A stretch of DNA of 64,000 bases, taken from NCBI GenBank assembly GCA_963722735.1, contig CAVROH010000013.1:2942-66941 (forward strand), read 5' to 3'. This stretch comes from an uncultured Chloroflexia bacterium. Lineage in GTDB: Bacteria > Chloroflexota > Anaerolineae > Anaerolineales > UBA11579. The notes under the pieces were generated by a model, which saw only the letters and a program-made list of their open reading frames with translations, was not told the origin of the DNA and did no database searches. The translations under genes were made by a program, and so were the position numbers. Positions 17,700 through 31,633 of this stretch are shown one piece after another; positions within the stretch are counted from its first letter, which is position 1; the number at the start of each line of letters is the position of its first letter.

Positions 17700-18915
17700 T
17701 TATGCTTCTTCCTGCCAGAGATCCGGGTCGTAGGCGGGGAGTTCACAGCGCAGCGGGCGGTCCTTGCGGTAGCCAAGGGCGTAGTCCGCCTGCATCAGGG
17801 TGTGGACTTCGCTGGTGCCTTCATAGATCACCGCACCCTTGGAGTTGCGCAGGAAGCGCTCGACGGGGTATTCATCACTGAAGCCGTAAGCCCCATGCAC
17901 CTGGACAGCCTCGGAAGCGGCGGTGAAGGAAGCGTCGGTGGCAAACCACTTGGCCATCGAGGTCTCTTTGGTGTTGCGCAGGCCCTGGTTCTTCATCCAG
18001 CCGGCCTTCAGGATAAGCATACGGGCCATTTCATAGTCGCGCTTCATGTGGGCGATCTTCTGTTTGATCAGCTGGAAATTGCCAATCGGGCGGCCAAAGG
18101 CTTCGCGTTCATGGGCATATTTCACACTGGCATCCAGGCTGGCGCGGATCAGGCCAGTTGCCCCGGCGCCGACGGTGTAGCGCCCATTATCCAGGCAGGA
18201 CATGGCGATCTTGAAGCCTTCGCCTTCCTCGCCGATGCGGTTCTCTTCCGGGATGCGCACATCCTGCATCGCCACCCAGCCGGTGGAACCGGCGCGCACA
18301 CCCAGCTTGCCGTGGATATCGCCAGTAGTTACGCCTCGCGGTCGGTTTCGACCATGAAGGCGGTCAGCCCGCTGAAGATTTGTCAGCTTCAGAATCTGTG
18401 CGGGCGACAACCAGCACATTGTGGGCTTTGGTCGCCAGAGAGATCCACATCTTCTCACCATTGAGGATGTAATCACTGCCGTCCTTGACGGCGGTGCTGG
18501 CCATGGCGGCCACATCGGACCCGGCACCCGGCTCGGTGAGACCAAAGGCGGCATACTTCTCGCCTTTTGCCTGCGGCACCAGGAAGCGCTGCTTCTGCTC
18601 TTCGGTGCCCCACTGCGAGCAGACCCATGCTGTTCAGCCCCATATGCACGGACATGACCACCCGCAGGGTGGTGTCGGCGTATTCCAATTCTTCACAAAC
18701 CAGGCCAAGGGTGATGTAGTCGAATCCCTGTCCCCCATATTTGACGGGGATATTGATCCCCAGGATGCCCAGTTCTGCCCATTCTGGGCAGAATGTGCGG
18801 GGCCATTTCCTGCTTCTGGTCCCACTCTGCGATCGTGGGGATCACTTCTTTGTGGGCAAAGTCCCGCACCATCTTTTGCAGCCATCCGATGTTCATCAGT
18901 CAGGTTAAAGTCCAT
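17700..18915 (-). CDS. Acyl-CoA dehydrogenase
   Basis: [38 protein letters not shown] and IYEGTSEV. Confidence 0.93.
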
Positions 18916-19173
18916 TATCTTCCTCTAGGTTGAATTTACAGCCTATCCAGAACAATGGCGCGCCTCAAAACATCTGCCATTTTCTGGCTCTTCAGGCTGC
19001 ATCAGGAATTCCATTATAACATTTGTGAGGTGTGATTGGGAATTTGGGATTGGCGACGAAGCAATCTCCAGTTGTTGGCTGGCAGGTGTAGAGAGGTTCC
19101 TTCATCTTTGCAGTTTCGCTGACCCCAGTTTTTCTGACCCGGCTTCGCAAGGGCACTGCGAGGTGGATGCTTT

Positions 19174-19206
19174 TATCTGTGCGCATCTGTCTCCATCTGT
19201 GGCGAA
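19174..19206. repeat. Solo copy of the GxxExxY-associated 10-bp-periodic repeat
   Basis: TATCTGTGCGCATCTGTCTCCATCTGTGGCGAA; compare 29768-29801. Confidence 0.7.
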
Positions 19207-19316
19207 AATTTTTAGGTCTTCTGCGCATGTACACATTTATCCCCAGCGTGTATACTGGTACCAATATTCGATAGAAGGCACAGGCTGGCTGTGGTCCGCT
19301 TGGGCGCTGATCTGTT

Positions 19317-21496
19317 ATGGCTGATACTGAAAAAGACCTCCCCGAATTTACCGAACCCTCTGTTTTGGATTATGTGCGTGCCCGGCTGATGCCCTGGCGC
19401 GGGCCTGCTCCTGAGATCCCGGAAGCGCCGACTGAAGGTGTCTACTGGCTGGCGGAAACTGACCTGGGCGGAGGCATGGACTTGCCCCGCGAGCGGGTCG
19501 CCGACCGGCTGCCGGCGAAATCTCTGGGGGCGCTGGCTTTGGCCCTTTTGGGGCAGTTTTTCCTGATGCCGCCGCTGCGCCAGCCGCTGGTGGGGAGCTT
19601 CTTCTTCATTTTGGCGGTGGGCGTGCTGATCTGGGCAGTCAACAGCGGGGAATTGACGCTGGCCGCGCCGCAGCCATCCGAGGAGAGCACCGACCGGTTT
19701 GAGGTGCGGGTGCGCCCGCTGATCGCCGGGATTATCGTGCTATTTCTGGCCTTCTGGGCTTTCTCCAAAAATCCGCAGAGTGGCGAATTCCTCTACACCG
19801 GGTTGAATCTTATGCTGTGGTTCACGGGGATCGGGCTGGTGCTGTGGGCGTTGTGGATGCCCGTTCCCGATTGGGCCGGGCTGTGGGAGAAGGCCAAAGG
19901 CTTTTTCAGGCGCGAGAACTGGGAGATCAAGATCACACCGCATGCGCTGCTGGTGGTGCTGGTCTTCCTGGTGGCGGTGTTCTTCCGCACATACTCGGGT
20001 GGGAGATGTGGTGCCGGAGATGTTCAGCGACCATGCCGAAAAGCTGCTGGATGTCTATGATGTGCTCCAGGGACATTCCAAGATCTTCTTTGAGCGCAAT
20101 ACCGGGCGCGAGGGATTGCAGTTCCATCTGATCGCCTGGACGGTCAAGCTGTTTGGCACCGGGATCTCGTTTTTGAGCATGAAGATCGGGACGATCTTCT
20201 TCGGTATCTTCATGCTGCCGTATATTTATCTGCTGGGCAAGGAACTGGCGAATAAGAATGTTGGCCTGATGGCGATGTTGTTGACCGGGGTGTCCTACTG
20301 GCCGAACGTCCTCGCCCGGGTGGCGCTGCGTTTCATTCTCTACCCGGCCTTTGCCGCCCCCACGTTGTATTACCTGGTGCGCGGGCTGCGCACCGGCAAA
20401 CGCCATTATTTCATCCTCAGCGGCATCTTCCTGGGGATTGGTCTGCATGGGTACAGTCCTTTCCGGGCAGTGCCGGTGCTGGTGGTGATTGTGATGCTGT
20501 TGTATTGGCTGGAACGGCGTGAGAGCAACCGCTTCGACCGGGCATTTGTCTGGCTGGGGATCGTGGCGTTCGTCTCATTGGTCATCTTCCTGCCCCTGCT
20601 GCGGGTATGGACCCAGGATCCCGAGATTATTCAATTACCGGATGGCCTCCCGCCTGACGGCTTTGGAAGCCGGTGATCAGATGGCCCAGGGCTGGGCTTT
20701 GGTGGGCGTGTTCATTAAGAATGTGTGGGATGGGCTTGCTGATGTTCAACTGGAACAGCGGTGAGATCTGGGTGAATACGATTGTGAATACTCCCAGCCT
20801 GGAACTGGTTTCCGGGGCGGCGTTGATCATCGGCGCGGTGCTGGTGATCGGCCGGTATGCGCGGGACGCCAGTGGGAAGACGGCCTGCTGCTGTGGGGGA
20901 TCCCGATCCTGATGCTGCCCTCGACGCTTTCGCTGGCTTTCCCGCATGAGAACCCGGCCCCCAACCGGGCCGGTGGAGCGATGATCATGGTCTTTATCCT
21001 GGCGGCAATGGGGATCGAGGCGGTGCTGCGGGCGGTGCGCCAGCGGACTGGCGGGGTATTAGGCCTCCGGCTGGCAGTCGTGCTGGGGATTGGCTTGATG
21101 TTGATCTCCGTGGGGCAGAATTACCATCTGACCTTCACGACCTTCCCAGAGAATTACATCCCGAATTCCCGCGATACCTCCGAGATGGGCGCCGTGATCG
21201 CCCAGTTCACTGATACAGTTGGGTCTCCGGACCAGGCCTGGGTGGTGGCGTACCCGCATTGGGTCGATACCCGCCTGGTGGGGATCAATGCCGGCTTCCC
21301 GATCAAGGATTTCGCCATCTGGGAGGAAGATCTGGATGAGACCTTGCTGGTCAGCTCCCCCAAGTTGTTCCTGCTGAAGCTGGATGATAAGTACCGGGCT
21401 GGACGAGGCTGCAGGAGCTTGTATCCCGAAGGCAAGTTCTCGGTTTATCCGACCGAATACCCGGTGCATAGTTTCATTATTTATTCTGTCCCATAA
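19317..21496 (+). CDS. GT-C fold glycosyltransferase (PMT/GT39/ArnT-like; frameshifted)
   Basis: Polytopic; MFSDHAEK, FFERNTGRE, LGIGLHGYSPFR and a C-terminal soluble domain. Confidence 0.75.
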
Positions 21497-21511
21497 GTTG
21501 AGCCGATACGT

Positions 21512-24500
21512 ATGAGCGATCAAGAATCAATGCAGAAGCCGGAGACTGAATCCGGCACAATAAAGATGAAGAAACCGGCCCGCAACGACTGGATTTTTGA
21601 TGCGGTGATGATCCTGCTGCTGATCGCCGGGGCGGTGCTGCGTCTCTCGGGGATCGAGTGGGCGGCCGACCAATATCTGCACCCGGATGAACGCCATCTG
21701 GTAAATGTGGAGACCGCCCTCTCCACGGTGCAGACCTTCGGCCAGTATTGGGATACGGCCAATTCCACCCTCAACCCGCATAACGTGGGCTATAACTTCT
21801 TCGTGTACGGCACTCTGCCGATCTTCCTGGTGCGTTATGTCGGCTGAATGGCTGGGCCAGATCGGCTATTCGGAGATCATGATCATCGGGCGGCAGCTTT
21901 CGGCGATCGCCGACCTGTTCGTGGTGCTGCTGGTCTATCTGACCGCCTCACACGCCTTTGACCGCCGGGTCGGACTGGCAGCGGGGGCCTTCAGCGCCTT
22001 CACCGTGTTGGAGATCCAGATCTCGCATTTCTTTGCCGTCGATACCTATCTGACGTTGTTCAGTATGCTGGCGGTGTATATTGCCGTGCGGCTGGCGACT
22101 GAGGAGAATCCGGAGGAAGGGCCGGTGTTCAAGCCCTGGCTGTTCGTGTTCTTCGGCATCGCCCTGGGGATGGCGGTGGCTTCAAAACTGAATACCGTCC
22201 CGGTGGCGATGGTGCTGCCGCTGGCGGTGTGGGTGCGCATCTCACGCCTGCCGCGGGAGGAGCGTCTTGATGCCGCCTGGCATGCCTCCGGATATCTGAT
22301 CCTGGCGGCGGTGGTCAGCCTGGTCACCTTCCGTATTTTCCAGCCGTATGCCTTCAGCGGGCCGGGCTTCCTGGGTGTGCTGCCCAATCCGAAGTGGATC
22401 GATGATATTTCTGAGCTGATGCGCCAGACCAGCGGCGATTTTGACTGGCCGCCCTCGATCCAATGGGCGCGCCGGCCGGTATGGTTCTCCTTGCAGAATA
22501 TGGTGCTGTGGGGGATGGGCATTCCGATGTCGGTGATGGCCTGGGGCGGGTTCCTGGTCTCGGGCTGGCAGATGTTGAAGGGCAAGTGGCGCACCTTCGT
22601 GGTGATGTGGGTCTGGACGGCGTTTTATTTCGGCTGGCAGTCCATGGCCTTTAATCCGACGATGCGCTACCAGATTCTGGTCTACCCGATGCTGGCGATC
22701 TTTGCCGGCTGGGCGGTGGTGAGCCTGTGCGACTGGGCCGGCGCAGCGGCCAGGGGACAGCGTGCAGCCCAGATCGGGGCGGCGGTGTTGGGCGCAGGCT
22801 CGATTTTGCTGACTGCCTGGTGGGCGGTGGCCTTTGCCGGGATCTATACCCGCCCGATCACCCGGGTGGAGGCATCCGAGTGGATCTTCCACAATGTGCC
22901 CGGCCCGTTGAACTTGCAGATCCAGACTGGTGAGGAATCCTATTCCCAGCCGCTGCCGCTGCCGTATGGGCAGACGGTCAGTGACCAGATCGCCGTATTC
23001 CACCAGCTTTATCCCCAACCAGGCCGGCTTGCTGACCGAGGTGGCCTTCAAGGATGTGCTCACCGGGGGCGGTGACTCAGCTGGTGACCGTCTCGGTGGC
23101 GGAAATGGGTGGGTTGGACCTGCCGGTGTATGTAGACAGCGGCGAGGCGTATTTCGGTCCCGATGGCGCGCCGCTGCAGCTTACCCTCACGGATGAAGAC
23201 CACGCCGTCCTGCCCGGCAGCCGGACTTATATCCTCGAAGTGGGGCTGTTTTCCGGGGATACCCCGCTGCTGCTTGAGAACGGCTATCTCCGGTTGCAAA
23301 GCGTTTCGGGAGCGATCAGTCTGCCGATCACGGTGGAACCGGTGATCCTGGAGGCCGACGGCAGCGTATTCAGCTATTCATTCACCACTGTGGAGACTGT
23401 CTCACTGGTGGATGTAACCCTCTTCCTCGGCCAGGTCGACGTGGACCGGCTGGATGAGCAGACCTTCCGAATCCTGCTGGATACCGATCCGCGAATTCAG
23501 CAACCCGGTGGTCTCCGAGCCGGTCACGGTCACCGGGTTGGCGGACGGGGTCAGCCGGGAGGGCGGGGTTTTTGATCTGGATCAGCCAGTGCTGATGGAA
23601 TCGGCGAGTATCTATCATCTGCGGATCGAGAATCTGACCGAGGGCGGTGACGGCAACCTTCCAGGGCGCTTCACTGGCAAATGAGGGTGCCTGGGATGAC
23701 GGCTTGCCGATGCGGATCGAGAGGCTATAATGCTTATGGCGGGATCTATCCGCCCGACCTGGGCTTCGATATGTACAACGATGCCAACCCGGAAAAGCTG
23801 GACCGCTTCCTCGATTTGCTGGAGACCTCCGAGTACCTGACGATCTCTTCCAGCCGGCAGTGGGCCAGCACGACTCGCATCCCGGAACGCTACCCGTTGA
23901 ATGTGATCTATTACCGCAACCTGCTGGGCTGCCCGGAAGAGCGCACAATCGAGTGGTGCTACAACGTGGCTGAACCGGGGATGTTTGAGAGCAATCTGGG
24001 CTTCGATCTGATCAAGACATTCCAGTCAGACCCGGAATTTGCCGGTCGTGCGGATCAATGACCAGTTTGCCGAGGAAGCCTTCACCGTTTACGATCATCC
24101 CAAGGTGTTCATCTTCGAAAAGCAGGCGGGTTACAACCATGCCGCCGTGGTGGAGATATTTAGCCGAGGCAGATTTTGACAATGTGATCCGGCTGACGCC
24201 CAAGCAGGCCAGCGAATTCAAATCGCTGCTGCTGTCCGATGCCGCGCATCGCCCGCCAGCGGGAGGCCGGCACCTGGTCTGAACTGTTCGATTCGGATGC
24301 CTGGTACAACCGCTCCGGTTTGGGGGCGGTGGCGGTCTGGTATCTGGCGCTGACCGTGCTGGGGTGGGCGGTCTTCCCACTGGTGCGCAAAGCGCTGCCC
24401 GGACTGCCGGATCAGCGGCTATCCCGCTGGTGCGGACTGCCGGGATGCTGCTGCTGGCCTATCTGAGCTGGCTGGCGGGGTCAGTGGGGTTGGGGTATAC

Positions 24501-26761
24501 CCGCCCGGTGATCGCTGGGCGTCTATCTGCTGCTGGTGGCGGTGGGAATCTGGCAGGCGATCCGGCAGCGGGATGAGCTGAGTACCGCTGCTGCGGGAAC
24601 ACTGGCGCGATTTCCTCCGGGCGGAACTGGTCTTCCTGGCGGCCTTCGTGCTGGTGCTGCTGGTGCGCTACGGCAACCCTGATCTGTGGCACCCGTATAA
24701 GGGCGGCGAGAAGCCGATGGACTTCGCTTATTTCAATGCCATTCTGAAAACGGTTTCCTTCCCGGCTTATGATCCCTGGTATGCGGGCGGCTACATCAAC
24801 TACTATTATTTCGGGTTTGTGTTCGTCGGTACGCTGGTGAAAATGTTGGGGATCGTCCCGGCGCTGGCCTATAACCTCATTCTGCCGACTTTGTTTGCGA
24901 TGATCTTCTGCCGGGGCGTATTCTGCGGCTGGGTAATCTTTTCCGCAAATGGCAGGAAGACCGGGGCGGAGATGCAGGCGAAGCTAAAGCTGCCCGGCCT
25001 GGCTGGTAGGGATCGCTGGGGCGCTGGTCACCGCATTCCTCGGCAACCTGGGCACCGTCCGGTTGTTCATGGAGGGCTTCCAGCGGCTGGCGGCTCAGGG
25101 TGATTTCAGCCGGGAAGCGGCCTTCTTCACCAAATTGGGCTGGACCTTCAGCAGGTTTTGGTCAAGTATTCAAGGGATCGGTCTGCCCTATGCCACGGGA
25201 GAATTTTACTGGCAGCCAAGCCGGGTGATCCCGGCGATCAACGAGCCGGAACCGATCACCGAGTTCCCCTGGTTCACCACGATCTACGCCGATCTGCATG
25301 CCCATTTCATGTCGCTGGCGCTGGTCTTTTTGGCGGTGGCCTGGGTGCTGGCGGTGGTTTTCTCCAAAGCATGGCAGGGGCAGAAGCCGCTGGCAGGTGG
25401 CGTGGAGCTTTGTATTTGCCGGGGTGGCGATTGGTGCATTGCGCCCGACCAATACCTGGGACCTGCCGACCTACCTGGCGCTGGGTGTGGTGGCGGTGAT
25501 TTATGCCGCTTTCCGCTATGGGGGGGAGAATCCGCCAGGTAAGCCTGAAGCTCCGGTCAATGGAAACTGGATCCAGGCTGTGGGTGGGGCGCTGGCCCTG
25601 ATTGCGCTGACCTTCATACTCTACCAGCCGTTTGCCCAGTGGTACGGCATGCCTTACTCTAAAATCATGGATCTGGCGCGGCACGCATACCCCGGTCAGT
25701 TCATATTTCTGTGCATTGGGGGCTGTTCCTCTTCATCCTGGTGTTCTGGATGGGTTGGGAGACGCGCCAGTGGATGGCGACAACCCCGCTTTCCGCTTTG
25801 CGCAAACTGGAACCGTACCGTAGCTGGATCTGGGTCGGGGTTGGGCGGTCTTGCTGGTGATGGCTGTCATGGCGCTGGCGCTCAAGGTGCGCATTCAGTT
25901 GATCGCCTTGCCGCTGGCAGTCTGGGCGGCGATGCTGCTCTTCCGCCCGGGGACCAGCGACAGCAAGCGGATCGTGCTGTTCATCACCGGCACGGCCTTC
26001 TTCCTGACGATGCTGGTGGAAGTGATCGTGCTTTCCGGCGATATTGGCCGGATGAACACGGTATTCAAATTCTATTTGCAGGCCTGGGTGCTGTTTGGGG
26101 CCAGCAGTGCGGCCGCCTTTGGCTGGACGCTGATGGAACTGCGCCGCTGGCGGGAAGGCTGGCAGGTCGTCTGGCGGATCGGGCTGGCGGCGCTGGCATT
26201 GGGGGCTTTCATGTTCCCGCTGACAGCGACCACGGCCAAGATCCAGGACCGGATGTCTGCTGACAGCGCCGCATACCCTGGACGGGATGGCCTTCATGCA
26301 GACCTCTGAGTACCCGGATGAGGGCGGGGTGGTGCAGCTGGATGCGGAATATGAAGCCATCCGCTGGGTGCAGGAGAATATCTCCGGCACGCCGGTGATC
26401 GTGGAGGCGAATACGCCGCTGTACCGCTGGGGGAGCCGCTTCAGCATCTACACCGGGCTGCCGACCGTGCTGGGGTGGGACTGGCATCAAACCCAGCAGC
26501 GCGGCCACTCACCAGGTCAGCGATATCTCCGGCCGGCAGCAGGATATCAGCATGTTTTACCTGATGGATGACCGTATGATCGCCGAGAACTTCCTGCGTG
26601 AGTACGAAGTGGAGTATGTGATCCTCGGACAGCTGGAGCGCAATTATTATCCCGGCGCGGGGCTGGACAAGTTCGAGCGCTGGGAGGGCGACCTGTGGGA
26701 AGAGGTCTACCGCAATGAGCAAACCGTGATCTATCGGGTGATTGGAGGATGCCCTGTATGA
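21512..26761 (+). CDS. Very large membrane protein: N-terminal GT39-like domain plus DUF2298 (Chlor_Arch_YYY) domain (many frameshifts)
   Basis: HPDER, FVYGTLP, SHFFAVD; later GGEKPMDFAYFNA..DPWYAGGYINYYYFG, ADLHAH and RMNTVFKFY. Confidence 0.75.
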
Positions 26762-26783
26762 TGGGGCGGGAGAGTAGGCGGAG

Positions 26784-29282
26784 ATGGTCTGGTTAGCGCC
26801 GGTATTGTGGGTTTTGCTGGTCAGTGCGGTGGGGTGGGGCGTGTTCCCGCTGGCTTACCGCTTCTTTCCCGGGCTGTCAGACCGGGGCTATGCGGTCAGC
26901 CGAGCGCTGGGCCTGCTGCTGTGGGGGTATCTCTTCTGGCTGCTGAGTTCGCTGGGCGTGCTGGTGAATACCACCGGCGGGATCCTGACGGCGCTGCTAC
27001 TGGTGCTGGGGGTCAGCTATTTCTTCTGGCGGAAAATTGATAGAGACGAGTTCAAAGCCTGGCTGAGGGAGAAGCGTAAGACCCTGATTATCGCAGTAGA
27101 GATCGTCTTCCTGGTCAGCTTTGTCTTCCTGCTGATCTTCCGGGGGATGGACCCGGCGATTTTAGGCACCGAGAAGCCGATGGAACTGGCCTTCATCAAT
27201 GCGATCCTGCGCTCCCAGCAGATGCCGCCGCTGGACCCATGGCTGGCGGACTATTCGATCTCGTATTATTACTTCGGTTACGTGATGGTGGCGATGCTGG
27301 CGAAGATCACCGCGGTCAGTGGGGGTGTGGCCTTCAATCTGGGGCTTTCGCTGGTGTTTGCGATGGGCGCGGCCGGGGCGTATGGGATTATCCATAACCT
27401 GCTGGCGGCACTGCCCGAGGAACGGCGGCCAAATCTGACCAGGCTGCCGGTGCTGGGGCCATTGTTTGTGCTGATCCTGAGCAATGTGGAGGGCTTTCTG
27501 GAGTTCATCCACGGGCGGGGGGCTTTCTGGCAGCAGGCTGCAGACGGCACCTGGACTTCCACATTCTGGACGTGGGTCAACCTGGATAATCTCAAGCTGC
27601 CGCCGCCGGACAATACTGCTCCGGGACAACTGCGCCACTGGTGGTGGTGGCGGGCCTCCCGCGTGGTGGCCGATTTCGACCTGTTCGGCAACTTCCGCGA
27701 GGTGATCGACGAGTTCCCCTTCTTTTCCTTCCTGCTGGCCGATCTGCATCCGCATGTGCTGGTGATCCCCTTCGTGATGCTGGCGCTGGCCTTCAGCCTG
27801 AATATGTTCCTGCAGCCGGCGGAGGAATTCGAGCGCCGTTTCCGCCTGTTCCGGTTCGATTATGATTTCTCCCCGCAGACCTTTTTCCTGGGGGTGGTGA
27901 TCTTTGGTGGGCTGGGCTTCCTGAATATCTGGGACTTCCCCTGGTACGTGGTGGTCTTCGCCGGGGCGCATTTGCTGCGCAAGGCAGAACGGCGCGGCTG
28001 GCATGGCGACCGGCTTTTGGAGTTCGTGGTGCTCGTGCTGGCATTCGGCGTCTTTGGGATCGTGGCGTACCTGCCGTTCTACATCAGCTTCTCCTCACAG
28101 GCCGGTGGGATCCTGCCGAATGTGATCAACCCGACGCGGGGCATTCACCAGTGGATCATGTTTGGGACGCTGTTCCTGCCGCTGTTCTCCTTCCTGATCT
28201 ACCTGGCTGCCCGGCGCAAGAAGACTGGGTATACGCTACGCGGCCTGGGTCTGGCATTGTTTGGGATTGTGCTGCTGTTTGGTGCTCTCGCTGGGGATGA
28301 CCAGTTCTGATGGGGGCGCAGACCGAGGTGGCTGGCGGCGTAGAGGTACATCCATTCTTGCAGCTGTACGGTGCTGAGTCAGCGGGGCAGTTGATCCGTG
28401 AAGGTCTTTCCCGGCGGGGGACGGCGATCTTCAGTGCGCTGACCCTGACCGCCTTGCTGGGACTGGCATTTGGTGCGGTCTGGCCGAGGCGGGATGTAGA
28501 GGGTGAGGAAGAGCCAGAGGAAAAACTGCCAGCTCCGCACCAGTTTGCGGTGGTGATGATCATCGTCGCCGGGCTGCTGGTGGTGGTGCCGGAGTTCTTT
28601 TACCTGCGGGATCTGTTTGGCAGCCGGATGAACACGATCTTCAAGTTTTATTACCAGGGCTGGATCATGTGGGCGCTGGCTGGCGCGTATGGCAGCGCCG
28701 TGCTGTTCAGCGCGCCGAAGAAGCAGCTTGCCGGCAAGATCTACCCGGTGGTATTTGTGATCGCGCATGCTGGTGGGGCTGACCTACCCGGCGATGGGGC
28801 TGCATACGCGCATCTCTCATTTTGCCGCCCAGCCGGAGCCGGCGCTGGAGCTGGACGGCACGGCGAATAATTTTTATCTCAGCGAGGAGGAGCATGCCGC
28901 CGTGGATTGGCTGATGGATGCGCCGACCGGCACGCTGGTGGAGGCGGTGCATCCCTATGGGGGCAGCTATACCCATTACGCCCGTATCTCGATGAATTCC
29001 GGCCAGCCGGCTTTGCTGGGATGGGTCGGGCATGAGGGCCAGTGGCGCGGCGGCAACGAGGAGATGGGGTCCCGCCAGTCGGATATTGAGCGGCTTTACC
29101 AGACGCCTTCCTGGCAGGAGACCTCGGGAGATCATTGACCAGTACCAGATCGTGTACATTGTGCTGGGCAATCTGGAGCGGACGACCTATCGGTCTACGA
29201 GGAGAAGTTTATCCAGAATCTGACACCGGTCTTCCAGCAGGGCGGGGTCACGATCTACCATACGGGTTTGATCGGTGAGTAA
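26784..29282 (+). CDS. DUF2298 (Chlor_Arch_YYY) membrane protein
   Basis: GTEKPMELAFINA..DPWLADYSISYYYFG, EFPFFSFLLADLHPH, RMNTIFKFYYQ and GWVGHEGQWR. Confidence 0.85.
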
Positions 29283-29288
29283 GATTTA

Positions 29289-29801
29289 ATTCACCACAGA
29301 TAAACACAGATGAACACGGATAATTAAAATTAATTTAGAAAAAATTAAAGACCATGGAAATAAATGTGATCTCTGAGAAGATAATTGGGGCGGCTTATAC
29401 GGTCAGCAACGAATTGGGCGTTGGCTTTCTGGAGAAAGTCTATGAGAATTCCCTGGTGCATGAATTAATTAAGTCTGGACTTGAGGTCAAGCAACCGCAT
29501 CCATTACGGGTATTTTACGATGTCAGATCGTGGGCGAATTCTTCGCCGATTTAGTGGTAGAAGATACTGTATTGGTAGAGTTGAAAGCAGTCAATGCGTT
29601 GAATAATGATCACCTGGCTCAATGTTTGAATTATTTACGGGCCAAAGATATCCCGTTGTGCCTATTGATTAATTTTGGAGAGAAACGGGTAAAGGTGAAA
29701 AGAATAGTTGGTGCAAACTTCAACCTCGAGGCTGCAGAATATACATTAGGCAATTATCGAATACCACTATCTGTGTTTATCTGTGTGCATCTGTGGTGAA
29801 T
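29289..29801. mobile_element. Putative GxxExxY cassette bounded by 34-bp inverted repeats
   Basis: Left 29289-29322 ATTCACCACAGATAAACACAGATGAACACGGATA; right 29768-29801 reverse-complements to it at 30/34 positions; AT-rich interior. Confidence 0.6.
29354..29799 (+). CDS. GxxExxY protein (PD-(D/E)xK nuclease-like), one frameshift near 29525
   Basis: GFLEKVY (GxxExxY), ADLVVEDTVLVELKAV, HLAQCLNYL and LLINFG. Confidence 0.92.
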
Positions 29802-29842
29802 ATGGTTTTAATGATGTATAAGATATAATCCCTAATCAGGAC

Positions 29843-31633
29843 ATGGATATGGAAGCAAGAAGCGATTCAAAACTGAAATGGTCGCCGACGCTTGAAGAAT
29901 TGCTGTACCTGCTGGCGTTTGTGATCGCGCTGGTGATGCGGCTGGTGATCCTCGGGCAGTACCATCTCTCTGAGACGGAAGCGGGATACGCCTTACAGGC
30001 TTACCAGGTCTCTCAAGGGGAGGATCTGCAGATGCTGGGGAATCCGGCCTATATCCAACTGACCGGGATATTGTTTTACTTGCTGGGCAGCGGTGATGTG
30101 ATTGCCAGGATGCTTCCGGCAGTGGTGGGCAGCGCGGTGGTCCTGCTGCCGTATCTGTGGCGGGAGCATCTCGGTGAGAAAGCGGCCCTGGTAGCGGCGT
30201 TTGGCCTGGCGCTGGACCCGATCTCGATGGCGGTCTCCCGGCAGGCGGGCAGCCCGGTATGGCGCTGGGATTTCTGACTCTGGCGGTCTTCTTCTGGCAG
30301 CGCAAGCGGATGCTGGCTGGCCGGGATCCTGGCTGGATTGCTGATCATGTCCGGGATATCATTCGTGTTCGGTCTGGTGGGCCTGCTGGCGGCCTGGGCA
30401 GTGATCCATTTTGTCTCCGATATCCGGACCGGAATTTAAAATCGATCCCGCAGGAGCGCAACCTGCTGCTGGCCGGGATCGGGATTGCGCTGGTGGCGGT
30501 GGGGACTCTGTTTGCACTCGAATTCCAGGGGCTGGCGGCGACAGTACAGGCGCTGGCGATTATATTGCCGGCTGGTTTGGCGGAGTCCGATGGGCAGCAT
30601 CCGCTGGCGATCCTGCTGGGGCTGATCGTCTATCAGCCAATGGGGCTGCTGTTTGCGATCCTGCTGTGGCTCAACCGCAACAAGAATGGCGAGATCGTCA
30701 ATATCCTGCTGACGATCGTCTTCCTGGTGTTCCTGGCGCTGACGCTGGTGTATCCCGCCAGGGGGATGTGGATGCTGATCTGGGCGGTGGTGCCGCTCTG
30801 GCTGCTGGCCGGCCAGGTTGATCGGCGAGTATCTCTCTGCGCCGGATGAGCAGGACCGTATCCTGGTGTGGGGCGGGGCGGTCTTCTATTTGATCCTGCT
30901 GGTGTACTGGTGGATGAACCTGGCTCAGATGACAGCGGAGATCGGTCTGGTGCGGCCGGAGGGGGTGAGGTTGTTGGAGTTGACTCAGGGTCGATCCGGT
31001 TTCCAGGGTGTATGTGGTGCGCCTGGCTGGTCACGATCCTGATCCCGCTGCTAATCGTGATATTATCAGGGCTGGTCTCATGGGGGTGGGCGGCAGAAGC
31101 CTCGATCCGCGGTGCTGTCTGGGGGGTGGGGGCGTTCCTGGTGTTCTACATCGTAATGGCTGCCTGGGGATTTTCAGCCCCGCCGGAAGAAGTGGCTTCC
31201 GAGTTGTGGGTGCAGGGGCCGTCTGTCGGGCAGACCGAGGTGAAATGGTGACTGCCATCGAAGAGGCCTCCATGCAGATCACCGGGACGAAGTATGAACT
31301 GGCGTTGGTATATCAGATTGATTCCCGGCTGGTGGACTGGCTGCTGCGTGATTTCCCCAATGCGCGTTACAGCCCGACCCTGGCGGCCAATGATCTGCCG
31401 GATGTGGTCTTGAATCAGGATCTGGGCTTTGTGGAGACGAATCGGGGCAGTTGTATGGCGGGCAGCAGTTTGTGCTTCATCTGGAGCGCGCCTGGGGGAA
31501 TCCGGTGCTGCCGCCTGATTTTGACCGTTGGCTGGTGTTCCGCCAGTCTCCGGTGAGTCAAGGATTGGGCCTATCTCTGTGGACACGGGCAGACCTGTTC
31601 CCGTTGTACGACATTCTGAGAATAGCCCGGTAG
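29843..31633 (+). CDS. GT-C-like membrane protein (TIGR03663/GT39-related; frameshifted)
   Basis: LSETEAGYAL..GNP..FYLLGSGDVIARMLPAVVG..LLPYLWREHLG..AALVAAFGLALDP..SRQ pattern; polytopic. Confidence 0.65.

Follow-up and report, generated by a model that had tools for sequence, protein, structure and literature searches.

In REPIN/RAYT systems (REP, repetitive extragenic palindromic sequence; REPIN, an inverted REP doublet; RAYT, REP-associated tyrosine transposase), a single or low-copy gene coding for a transposase of the HUH/Y1 (IS200-like) type lies between inverted copies of a short repeat, of which tens to hundreds of copies are scattered over the extragenic DNA. Inverted doublets that form hairpins are frequent among them, with loops conserved in recent copies, and several repeat variants may be found in one genome, each beside its own copy of the gene. 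Some of these features belong to the general knowledge of the field. Others are taken from the available parts of two papers (PMC3337134, PMC5581495). A second relevant case is the intervening sequence (IVS) of 23S rRNA, which occurs in Coxiella, Leptospira, Salmonella, and other bacteria. According to the available part of one study, that of Coxiella is 428 nt long, is closed by a 28-bp terminal stem in which RNase III cleaves, and carries tandem GACAGAT heptamers ahead of its S23p open reading frame (ORF); the function, the origin, and the mobility of IVS elements are stated there to be unclear (PMC4990558). Here, we describe a unit that recalls both systems. It was found in a 64,000-nucleotide stretch of DNA from an uncultured Chloroflexia bacterium (hereafter, the window) and consists of one GxxExxY gene, coding for a small predicted nuclease, bracketed by inverted arrays of a heptamer repeated every 10 bp. 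The evidence assembled below makes it highly probable that this unit is a discrete cassette, gained and lost as a whole, that it belongs to a family crossing phylum borders, and that its arms also exist as gene-less copies. No description of such an architecture was found in the literature on IVS proteins, four-helix-bundle proteins, heptameric repeats and REPIN/RAYT systems, a search that left subscription journals and supplements outside.

In the window, the cassette extends from 29289 to 29801 (513 bp). It begins 6 bp after the stop codon (TAA, 29280-29282) of a DUF2298 membrane-protein gene (26784-29282, plus strand, in several frame pieces; Pfam PF10060, E 3.7e-91) and it is AT-rich, the GC fraction dropping from about 0.60-0.65 in the flanks to 0.38-0.45 across 29200-29900. 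Its ends are inverted arms of 34 nt, located at 29289-29322 (plus strand) and 29768-29801 (minus strand), which are complementary at 30 of 34 positions (88%). Each arm contains three heptamers spaced by exactly 10 bp, within 29295-29321 on the plus strand (units at 29295-29301, 29305-29311, and 29315-29321) and within 29769-29795 on the minus strand, and the left arm fits the repeat consensus derived from the whole genome. The three-unit pattern is matched 3 times in the window, against 0 times in 100 shuffled sequences. The third match (19175-19201, minus strand) belongs to a gene-less solo repeat at 19172-19207. The sole ORF within the cassette is that of the GxxExxY protein, whose stop codon (29797-29799) lies inside the right arm, and no target-site duplication is evident at the junctions. 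A preliminary description of this DNA, made from the letters alone, had already reported the 513-bp AT-rich segment placed 6 bp past the DUF2298 stop, its 34-bp inverted repeats with 30 identities, the reading frame ending inside the right repeat, and the lack of a target-site duplication, and all of this agrees with our coordinates and alignments. It had further reported three CACAGAT units at 10-bp spacing in each arm; their number and spacing are borne out, whereas the left arm has CACGGAT as its third unit.

Comparison with 40 related genomes, using positions 28300-30800 as query, showed that the two flanks of the cassette adjoin in congeners of the window's genome (G000). In three of them (G003, G001, and G004), the DUF2298 stop codon is followed by a repeat-free spacer of 27-33 bp and then by the ATG of the orthologue of the downstream gene, where G000 has 559 bp. 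In G000, this co-directional downstream gene has its start part at 29843-30277 (plus strand), is frame-broken further on, and matches no Pfam family. The DUF2298 frames of the congeners are intact (736-793 amino acids, cut by the locus edge) and share the same C-terminal motif. Congeners have empty sites, which the preliminary description had suggested looking for, and this identifies the segment as a discrete insertion that is gained and lost among closely related genomes. A contig from one sediment metagenome (run X1, record 6), in which 29231-29266 is joined to 29918-29953 with 295 other letters replacing 651, represents an alternative allele.

Cassettes are also found at other places in genomes of other genera or families. 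In G023, a GxxExxY gene between arms of the same type is located 4 bp after a CYTH gene, and a convergent ORF of 292 amino acids reaches with its 3′ end into the right arm. In G017, a cassette takes up the whole interval of 473 bp that separates a BCCP-like gene from the CYTH gene, an interval that measures 6 bp in G023; behind the CYTH gene of G017 the cassette is absent, and the downstream context differs from that of G023. In G037, a decayed cassette stands behind a DeoC-family aldolase gene, before the next ORF. The idea of a free-standing homing endonuclease directed at one conserved target was rejected because the sites differ, cassettes being found after DUF2298, CYTH, BCCP-like, DeoC-family, and transfer-messenger RNA (tmRNA) genes.

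The architecture of the family was surveyed by aligning the 220 bp upstream of each GxxExxY match to the reverse complement of the 220 bp downstream, with a threshold score of 14. In a first batch of loci from the relatives, 20 of 26 testable loci scored at least 14, shuffled sequences giving 13 at most. A cross-phylum sample was then drawn from a scan of species genomes with an alignment of four sequences, limited to the window's own subfamily. The best 80 of 576 confirmed relatives represent Planctomycetota, Acidobacteriota, several proteobacterial classes, Verrucomicrobiota, NC10, Cyanobacteria, Spirochaetes, Chloroflexota, and Methanosarcinales archaea; Geothrix paludis SG195 (L098), Rhodopirellula sp. 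SWK7 (L054), and Scytonema sp. NUACC26 (L116) are cultured carriers among them. Here, 63 of the 70 loci with enough flank scored at least 14 and 58 scored at least 16, compared with none of 139 controls, for which the aligned regions were shifted by 900 bp in the same loci (maximum 13.5). Inverted repeats beside GxxExxY genes had been put forward for checking in the preliminary description; GxxExxY genes are indeed flanked by inverted phased repeats far above chance. Of the two outcomes that the same description had named as refuting its idea, presence of the cassette in all relatives with no empty site and lack of a link between GxxExxY genes and such repeats, neither was obtained. The cassettes have a median size of 474 bp (range 417-662). 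Neighbouring heptamers are exactly 10 bp apart in 294 of 331 pairs, and the unit consensus is C-R-C-A-G-A-T-(G/A)-A-A. The inverted repeat usually extends about 5-16 nt past the outermost heptamer, in an A/T-rich part that is specific to each cassette. Beyond this extension, the surroundings of 68 cassettes showed neither a conserved flank nor a target-site duplication. At 45 loci the upstream ORF is co-directional and at 12 it is opposite, the left arm often starts at most about 15 bp from the upstream stop codon, and the right arm is often adjoined by a convergent downstream gene. Altogether, the cassette occupies different sites in different genomes and makes no target duplication. The spacers that receive it are very short, and it often follows a stop codon immediately, in sense orientation relative to the upstream gene. 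The heptamer word and its 10-bp phase are conserved across phyla, whereas loops and spacers are not.

Some loci deserve separate mention. At L074, the cassette (1465-1907) stands directly behind a tmRNA gene (1023-1413). The type of repeat unit follows the protein subfamily, the window's subfamily having GAT-type units, the 'NFNV/NWNV' subfamily AAG-type units, and a third one CTGAG-type units. In G045, 13 identical GxxExxY copies were considered as a guide to the cassette ends and rejected, since they are copies of a 2.2-kb unit resembling an insertion sequence (IS), with CTAG-type ends (L200:5089-7290). This unit carries an ORF of 531 amino acids without a clear Pfam family (weak match to DUF5682, E 0.0065) and, near one end, a passenger GxxExxY gene of another subfamily.

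The arms are not confined to the cassette. The genome G000 (3.58 Mb in 35 contigs, 70% complete) has a single GxxExxY gene and 60 arrays of the form ACCACAGAT-NN-ACACAGAT (at most two mismatches), against 0 for the reversed pattern. When copies are anchored on the heptamers, the conserved repeat unit is about 50 nt long and nothing is conserved in the flanks. Most of these copies are solo arrays. Five inverted pairs occur within 1 kb. One is the cassette, three are without a gene and measure about 70-370 bp, and the fifth seems to duplicate one of those three. Short gene-less derivatives of 128-250 bp with terminal inverted repeats were found, and the gene-less pairs have no internal sequence in common with the gene-bearing form. 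Arrays sit in short spacers between successive genes. By crude ORF calls in a frameshift-rich assembly, 35 of the 60 arrays of G000 would be co-directional with the neighbouring ORFs and 25 opposite. In the metagenomes, the summed contig depth is much higher on the arms (29270-29326 and 29726-29839) than on the flanks, with values up to 287 in run X6, and there are contigs in which two arms are linked across 7-32 other letters. The high arm depth and the arm-to-arm joins indicate that the repeat family is present in many contigs of four sediment metagenome runs (X1, X2, X5, and X6).

With a more general pattern (C-R-C-N-G-A-T three times, at most one mismatch), at least five arrays were found in 14 of 41 genomes, the reversed pattern giving 0 in all of them. 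The distribution is patchy, and within the genus arrays occur in 3 of 7 congeners. Five further genomes, those behind loci L084, L093, L128, L133, and L119 (G041-G045), contain 149 arrays and 3 GxxExxY matches (G041), 156 arrays and 1 match (G042, a complete 5.4-Mb chromosome of an acidobacterium of the Pyrinomonadaceae), 5 arrays and 10 matches (G043), 38 arrays and 6 matches (G044), and 74 arrays and 21 matches (G045), with 0-4 matches for the reversed pattern. The single GxxExxY gene of G042 is flanked by arms, and the inverted array pairs fetched from that genome (18 of 18) are hairpin doublets of 67-118 bp in which the heptamers are conserved while the loops and the 3-nt spacers vary. Directly before the first heptamer, 16 of these 18 doublets have the bases TC, as does the G042 cassette, and G000 has AC there in its dispersed consensus and in its cassette alike. 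Copies with and without the gene share this dinucleotide signature, which is specific to each genome. In G045, arrays of a single heptamer variant (CGCTGAT, CACAGAT, CACGGAT, or CACCGAT) stand within about 60 bp of each of seven GxxExxY matches, and each variant is also dispersed as doublets. In the same genome (L221-L227), both arrays are found upstream of the GxxExxY gene and face outwards, as in a circularly permuted cassette, and at L227 a separate perfect inverted repeat of 14 nt brackets the arrays and the gene.

Two observations concern the surroundings of gene-less arrays. The solo array of the window (19172-19207) lies within a stretch found in G000 only (about 18968-19219), at a synteny break relative to the congeners: its left flank corresponds to G003:C34, and the sequence on its right, starting at window position 19220, corresponds to G003:C84. 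Heptamer repeats may mark or mediate rearrangements. Other short phased repeats (for example AGTAG-type units of 8 nt and GATCAG/GGGATC-type units) abut heptamer arrays and form composite intergenic blocks with them, in G000 (C16:199110-199160 and C15:141150-141250) and in G007 (L041 and L045).

The gene carried by the window's cassette is read in two pieces, both on the plus strand. The N-terminal piece (29354-29554) is homologous over about 29354-29520, its remainder being out-of-frame read-through, and covers positions 2-52 of TIGR04256 (55.3 bits; PF13366, also named PDDEXK_3, 54.9 bits). The C-terminal piece (29530-29799) covers positions 58-116 (71.8 bits; PF13366, 65.9 bits); the domain ends at about 29709 and is followed by a tail of 29 amino acids that runs into the right arm. 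These scores compare with cut-offs of 35 bits for TIGR04256 and 22 bits for PF13366. The frame is shifted near 29520-29554 in this assembly. However, the assembly is rich in indels, in 26784-30850 and elsewhere: the DUF2298 gene and the downstream gene are each split in several frames, and at 30258 and 30319 the contigs of two metagenome runs share single-base indels that set them apart from the window. For this reason, the GxxExxY frameshift is not to be taken as real and the apparent pseudogenes of the window are not trustworthy; no metagenome contig covering the frameshift decided between a real event and an assembly error. Sediment contigs do span flank, arm, and gene, one in run X2 (record 10, 29125-29522) and one in run X5 (record 17, 29277-29472, with 1 difference).

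In an alignment of 23 GxxExxY proteins (A2), the G, E, and Y of the name motif are invariant, as are E80, Y59, N111, and R121, while E41, D70, K82, and Q94 are nearly so. The overall pattern is E...D...ExK...QxxxY, which we take to be of the RecB/Cas4 type. By comparison with this alignment, the G..E..Y, E, D, ExK, QxxxY, and NF residues are all legible across the two frame pieces of the window, the D, ExK, QxxxY, and NF motifs lying in the C-terminal one. The fold was predicted for the homologue of G023 (AlphaFold; predicted local distance difference test, pLDDT, 95.2; predicted template modelling score, pTM, 0.88). Its best Foldseek match in the PDB is the Cas4 protein SSO0001 (E 9e-5; TMq 0.54-0.59), followed by proteins of the lambda-exonuclease family, Cas4 Pcal_0546, MGME1, RecE, and Hjc resolvases. 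Sequence searches gave only a chance-level match in the PDB (E 0.19), only weak Cas4b profile matches in PADLOC (E 0.004-0.006), and no match in PHROGs. The preliminary description had assigned GxxExxY proteins to the PD-(D/E)xK superfamily, with which the profile matches and the model are in accord. The protein is predicted to be a minimal PD-(D/E)xK nuclease of about 125 amino acids whose nearest solved folds are of the Cas4/lambda-exonuclease type. Its predicted core, a restriction-endonuclease-like fold with a D...ExK active site, resembles those of Cas4, RecB-type nucleases, lambda exonuclease, and Hjc, and the E...D...ExK...QxxxY pattern is conserved. It differs from Cas4 in its size, about 100-130 columns aligning to Cas4 chains of about 200 amino acids, in the absence of a CRISPR context around the gene, and in that no solved structure was found by sequence. 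The protein is under constraint: internal stops are absent from 78 of the 80 loci of the cross-phylum sample, and all motifs are retained in 72. As to previous knowledge, the function of PF13366 is entered as 'Unknown' in a table within the available part of one paper (PMC3424549), and in the available part of another the GxxExxY domain is a mere label of a Cas4-like neighbour (PMC8934634). A literature search on GxxExxY/PF13366 function, with subscription journals and supplementary files outside its reach, found none.

At the RNA level, the two arms are predicted to close a long terminal stem when positions 29275-29820 are folded, in the minimum free energy structure as well as in the centroid structure. 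The folding energy is -155.5 kcal/mol (z -4.06), and none of 100 shuffled sequences folds as low. Mismatches between arms are compatible with G.U pairing in 77 cases and of the A.C type in 75, so that a wobble bias on the sense strand is absent. Promoter-like sites number 3, against 2.1 +/- 1.4 in shuffled sequences, and no terminator was found. The lack of a promoter excess and of a terminator fits co-transcription with the operon. In Rfam, the region 18800-30200 of the window gave no match at E<=1, and the only match over 17 other loci is the tmRNA beside the L074 cassette; none of these 17 loci lies within an rRNA gene. A 23S rRNA was not found in the G000 assembly.

These properties call for a closer comparison with the 23S rRNA IVS. 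The two have in common a size of about 430-500 nt, terminal inverted repeats forming a stem of about 28 bp, one small ORF, and heptamers beside this ORF, and the GACAGAT of Coxiella, as given in the available part of its description, differs from the cassette unit by one base (PMC4990558). In contrast to the IVS, the cassette lies between protein-coding genes and not in helix 25 or 45 of 23S rRNA, its ORF codes for a GxxExxY protein, a predicted nuclease, and not for an S23p/four-helix-bundle protein (TIGR02436), and its units are 10 bp apart, whereas the IVS heptamers are strictly tandem in that same source. The stem of the cassette is known from the predicted fold, RNase III cleavage being a feature of the Coxiella element. 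In the relatives, genes of the four-helix-bundle family themselves have flanking inverted phased arrays at 17 of 27 testable loci, against 2 of 54 shifted controls; the unit types differ from those of the cassette and mostly have a period of about 8 nt (L134-L163). The only TIGR02436 gene of G000 is at C12:50434-50760, outside the window.

Considering these data, the following model may be envisaged. The element is a cassette in which terminal inverted repeats, about 35-45 bp long, enclose a GxxExxY gene of about 125 codons, each arm comprising a short cassette-specific outer part and three heptamers (C-R-C-N-G-A-T) one helical turn apart. The same genome harbours tens to more than 150 gene-less arm copies as solo arrays, hairpin doublets, and short pairs resembling miniature inverted-repeat transposable elements (MITEs). 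The single nuclease would act on its cognate heptamers, with a number of subunits or binding events lined up on one helix face or on a hairpin, and this action would copy or move the arms together with its own gene. Expression of the cassette would come from read-through of the host operon, and its arms would close a long stem in the transcript, like that of the 23S rRNA IVS, thereby limiting the harm to the flanking genes. Two points guide this model. The conservation of the heptamer word and of its exact helical phase, while the rest of the arms drifts, points to a factor that reads sequence, and the GxxExxY protein is the only component that visibly travels with the arms. Moreover, a package of gene and repeat with gene-less copies, found in many bacterial phyla and some archaeal ones, looks like an undescribed selfish element. 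Taken as a whole, a widespread selfish cassette combined with a REPIN/RAYT-like action of the nuclease on its cognate heptamers is the reading towards which we lean slightly. For the part in which the nuclease would act on its own phased arms by a logic similar to that of REPIN/RAYT systems, we see the balance as close to even.

As in REPIN/RAYT systems, a single or low-copy gene lies between inverted copies of a dispersed short repeat, many copies are hairpin-forming inverted doublets, and several variants may coexist in one genome, each beside its own gene copy (G045). Since the genome holds many dispersed copies of the arms but only one gene flanked by them, the comparison holds better than the preliminary description, which had proposed a selfish cassette whose nuclease would recognise its own repeats, loosely similar to RAYT/REP pairs, could know. 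The insertion, the dispersed arms, and the single gene speak for that proposal, but the lack of the gene in 6 of 14 array-rich relatives does not. Unlike the REPIN/RAYT case, the enzyme is a predicted PD-(D/E)xK nuclease and not an HUH/Y1 transposase, the single repeat is not palindromic but made of three direct heptamers at 10-bp phase, so that hairpins arise from doublets only, and many array-bearing genomes are without a GxxExxY gene. The cassette also shares with IS elements and MITEs its terminal inverted repeats, the gene-less derivatives of 128-250 bp, and a presence/absence polymorphism; it differs from them by the absence of a target-site duplication and of a DDE transposase, and by gene-less pairs whose interior is unrelated to that of the gene-bearing form.

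Several facts weigh against the selfish, nuclease-driven model. Six of the 14 relatives with at least five arrays have no GxxExxY match (G001, G003, G007, G015, G016, and G022, 70-93% complete), and five of these six have none even at E<=1; arrays thus persist, and may spread, without the gene. GxxExxY genes are present in 8 of 14 genomes with arrays and in 9 of 27 others, a weak link between genomes that are kin and not independent. In a second batch of loci from the relatives, the arm score reached 14 in only 4 of 17 domain hits, and 7 of the 70 loci of the cross-phylum sample fell below it. Three ORFs of about 273-282 amino acids in G027 (L173, L174, and L175) each contain two tandem GxxExxY domains and have no flanking phased arms; these fused forms may be fixed, non-mobile derivatives. 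The loops of cassette doublets are not conserved, whereas those of recent REPIN copies are. Covariation of the heptamer type with the protein subfamily could be plain co-inheritance of one unit. The analogous arms of the four-helix-bundle genes imply that the architecture needs no nuclease and that the encoded protein need not move the cassette. Finally, the window's own GxxExxY gene is frame-shifted, although assembly indels are found nearby.

In another model, the cassette would be an RNA-level element comparable to the IVS. Its arms would form a double-stranded stem cut by RNase III from the polycistronic transcript, the GxxExxY protein would have no role in mobility or one unrelated to it, and the unit would spread by host recombination, horizontal transfer, or an unknown trans factor. 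The predicted terminal stem would be in keeping with this, as would the location of cassettes in operons, in sense and behind stops, with mostly co-directional upstream ORFs (45 against 12), the promoter and terminator signals not exceeding chance, the four-helix-bundle genes with analogous arms, and, in the available part of its description, the Coxiella IVS with its 28-bp stem, tandem GACAGAT, and RNase III cleavage (PMC4990558). However, a stem recognised by its shape needs neither a heptamer word nor a 10-bp phase, both of which are conserved across phyla, arm mismatches show no wobble bias (77 against 75), most G000 copies are solo and unable to form a stem, and 0 of 17 scanned loci lie in an rRNA gene. 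We hold this model to be unlikely as a full explanation. The RNA-stem property may nevertheless coexist with a nuclease-driven system, and it would explain why insertions inside operons are tolerated. It may also be imagined that the arrays are intergenic elements useful to the host, such as binding sites of a host protein, stabilisers of mRNA ends, or operators, with the GxxExxY gene merely standing between them, for example under autoregulation, and that the local insertion arose by illegitimate recombination. Arrays in genomes without the gene, their position in short spacers between successive genes, and the solo array at a synteny break agree with this idea, and heptamers conserved without their loops fit selection at each site. 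But the same arms accompany the subfamily through Chloroflexota, Acidobacteriota, Planctomycetota, Proteobacteria, and Methanosarcinales archaea, and we know of no host factor common to all those phyla. In addition, arrays are patchy within one genus (3 of 7 congeners), the arm type switches with the protein subfamily, and the cassette is present or absent as one unit, so that a host function appears even less probable than the RNA-level model.

Chance similarity or an assembly artefact, to which the indel-rich assembly, the split DUF2298 gene, and the single-base differences with metagenome contigs might have pointed, was rejected and has a negligible probability: the shuffled sequences gave 0 matches, independent metagenome contigs span flank, arm, and gene, and the cross-phylum arm survey found the architecture in dozens of unrelated assemblies. 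Going further than the selfish-cassette reading, one could propose that GxxExxY cassettes are a new class of mobile elements, in which a Cas4-like nuclease without a transposase or recombinase partner would recognise the arrays and propagate itself together with gene-less doublets. They would then be a second, independently evolved system of the REPIN/RAYT type, and the 23S rRNA IVS would be one branch of this class of cassettes with a small ORF and phased-heptamer inverted repeats. We regard this broader proposal as tentative and would sooner expect it to fail than to hold.

The GxxExxY/PDDEXK_3 proteins are a large family present in many phyla, and nearly every sampled member of one of their subfamilies lies inside the same repeat-bounded cassette. 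With arms spread through genomes in up to about 150 arrays, the family thereby acquires a definite role that can be tested. If the model is true, a non-HUH counterpart would be added to REP/RAYT biology. The finding also bears on the origin and the mobility of the 23S rRNA IVS, since the same architecture is now seen outside rRNA, with presence/absence polymorphism and in culturable hosts. Moreover, if a protein of this small size reads a 7-bp word at every helical turn, it would be useful as a DNA-recognition module.

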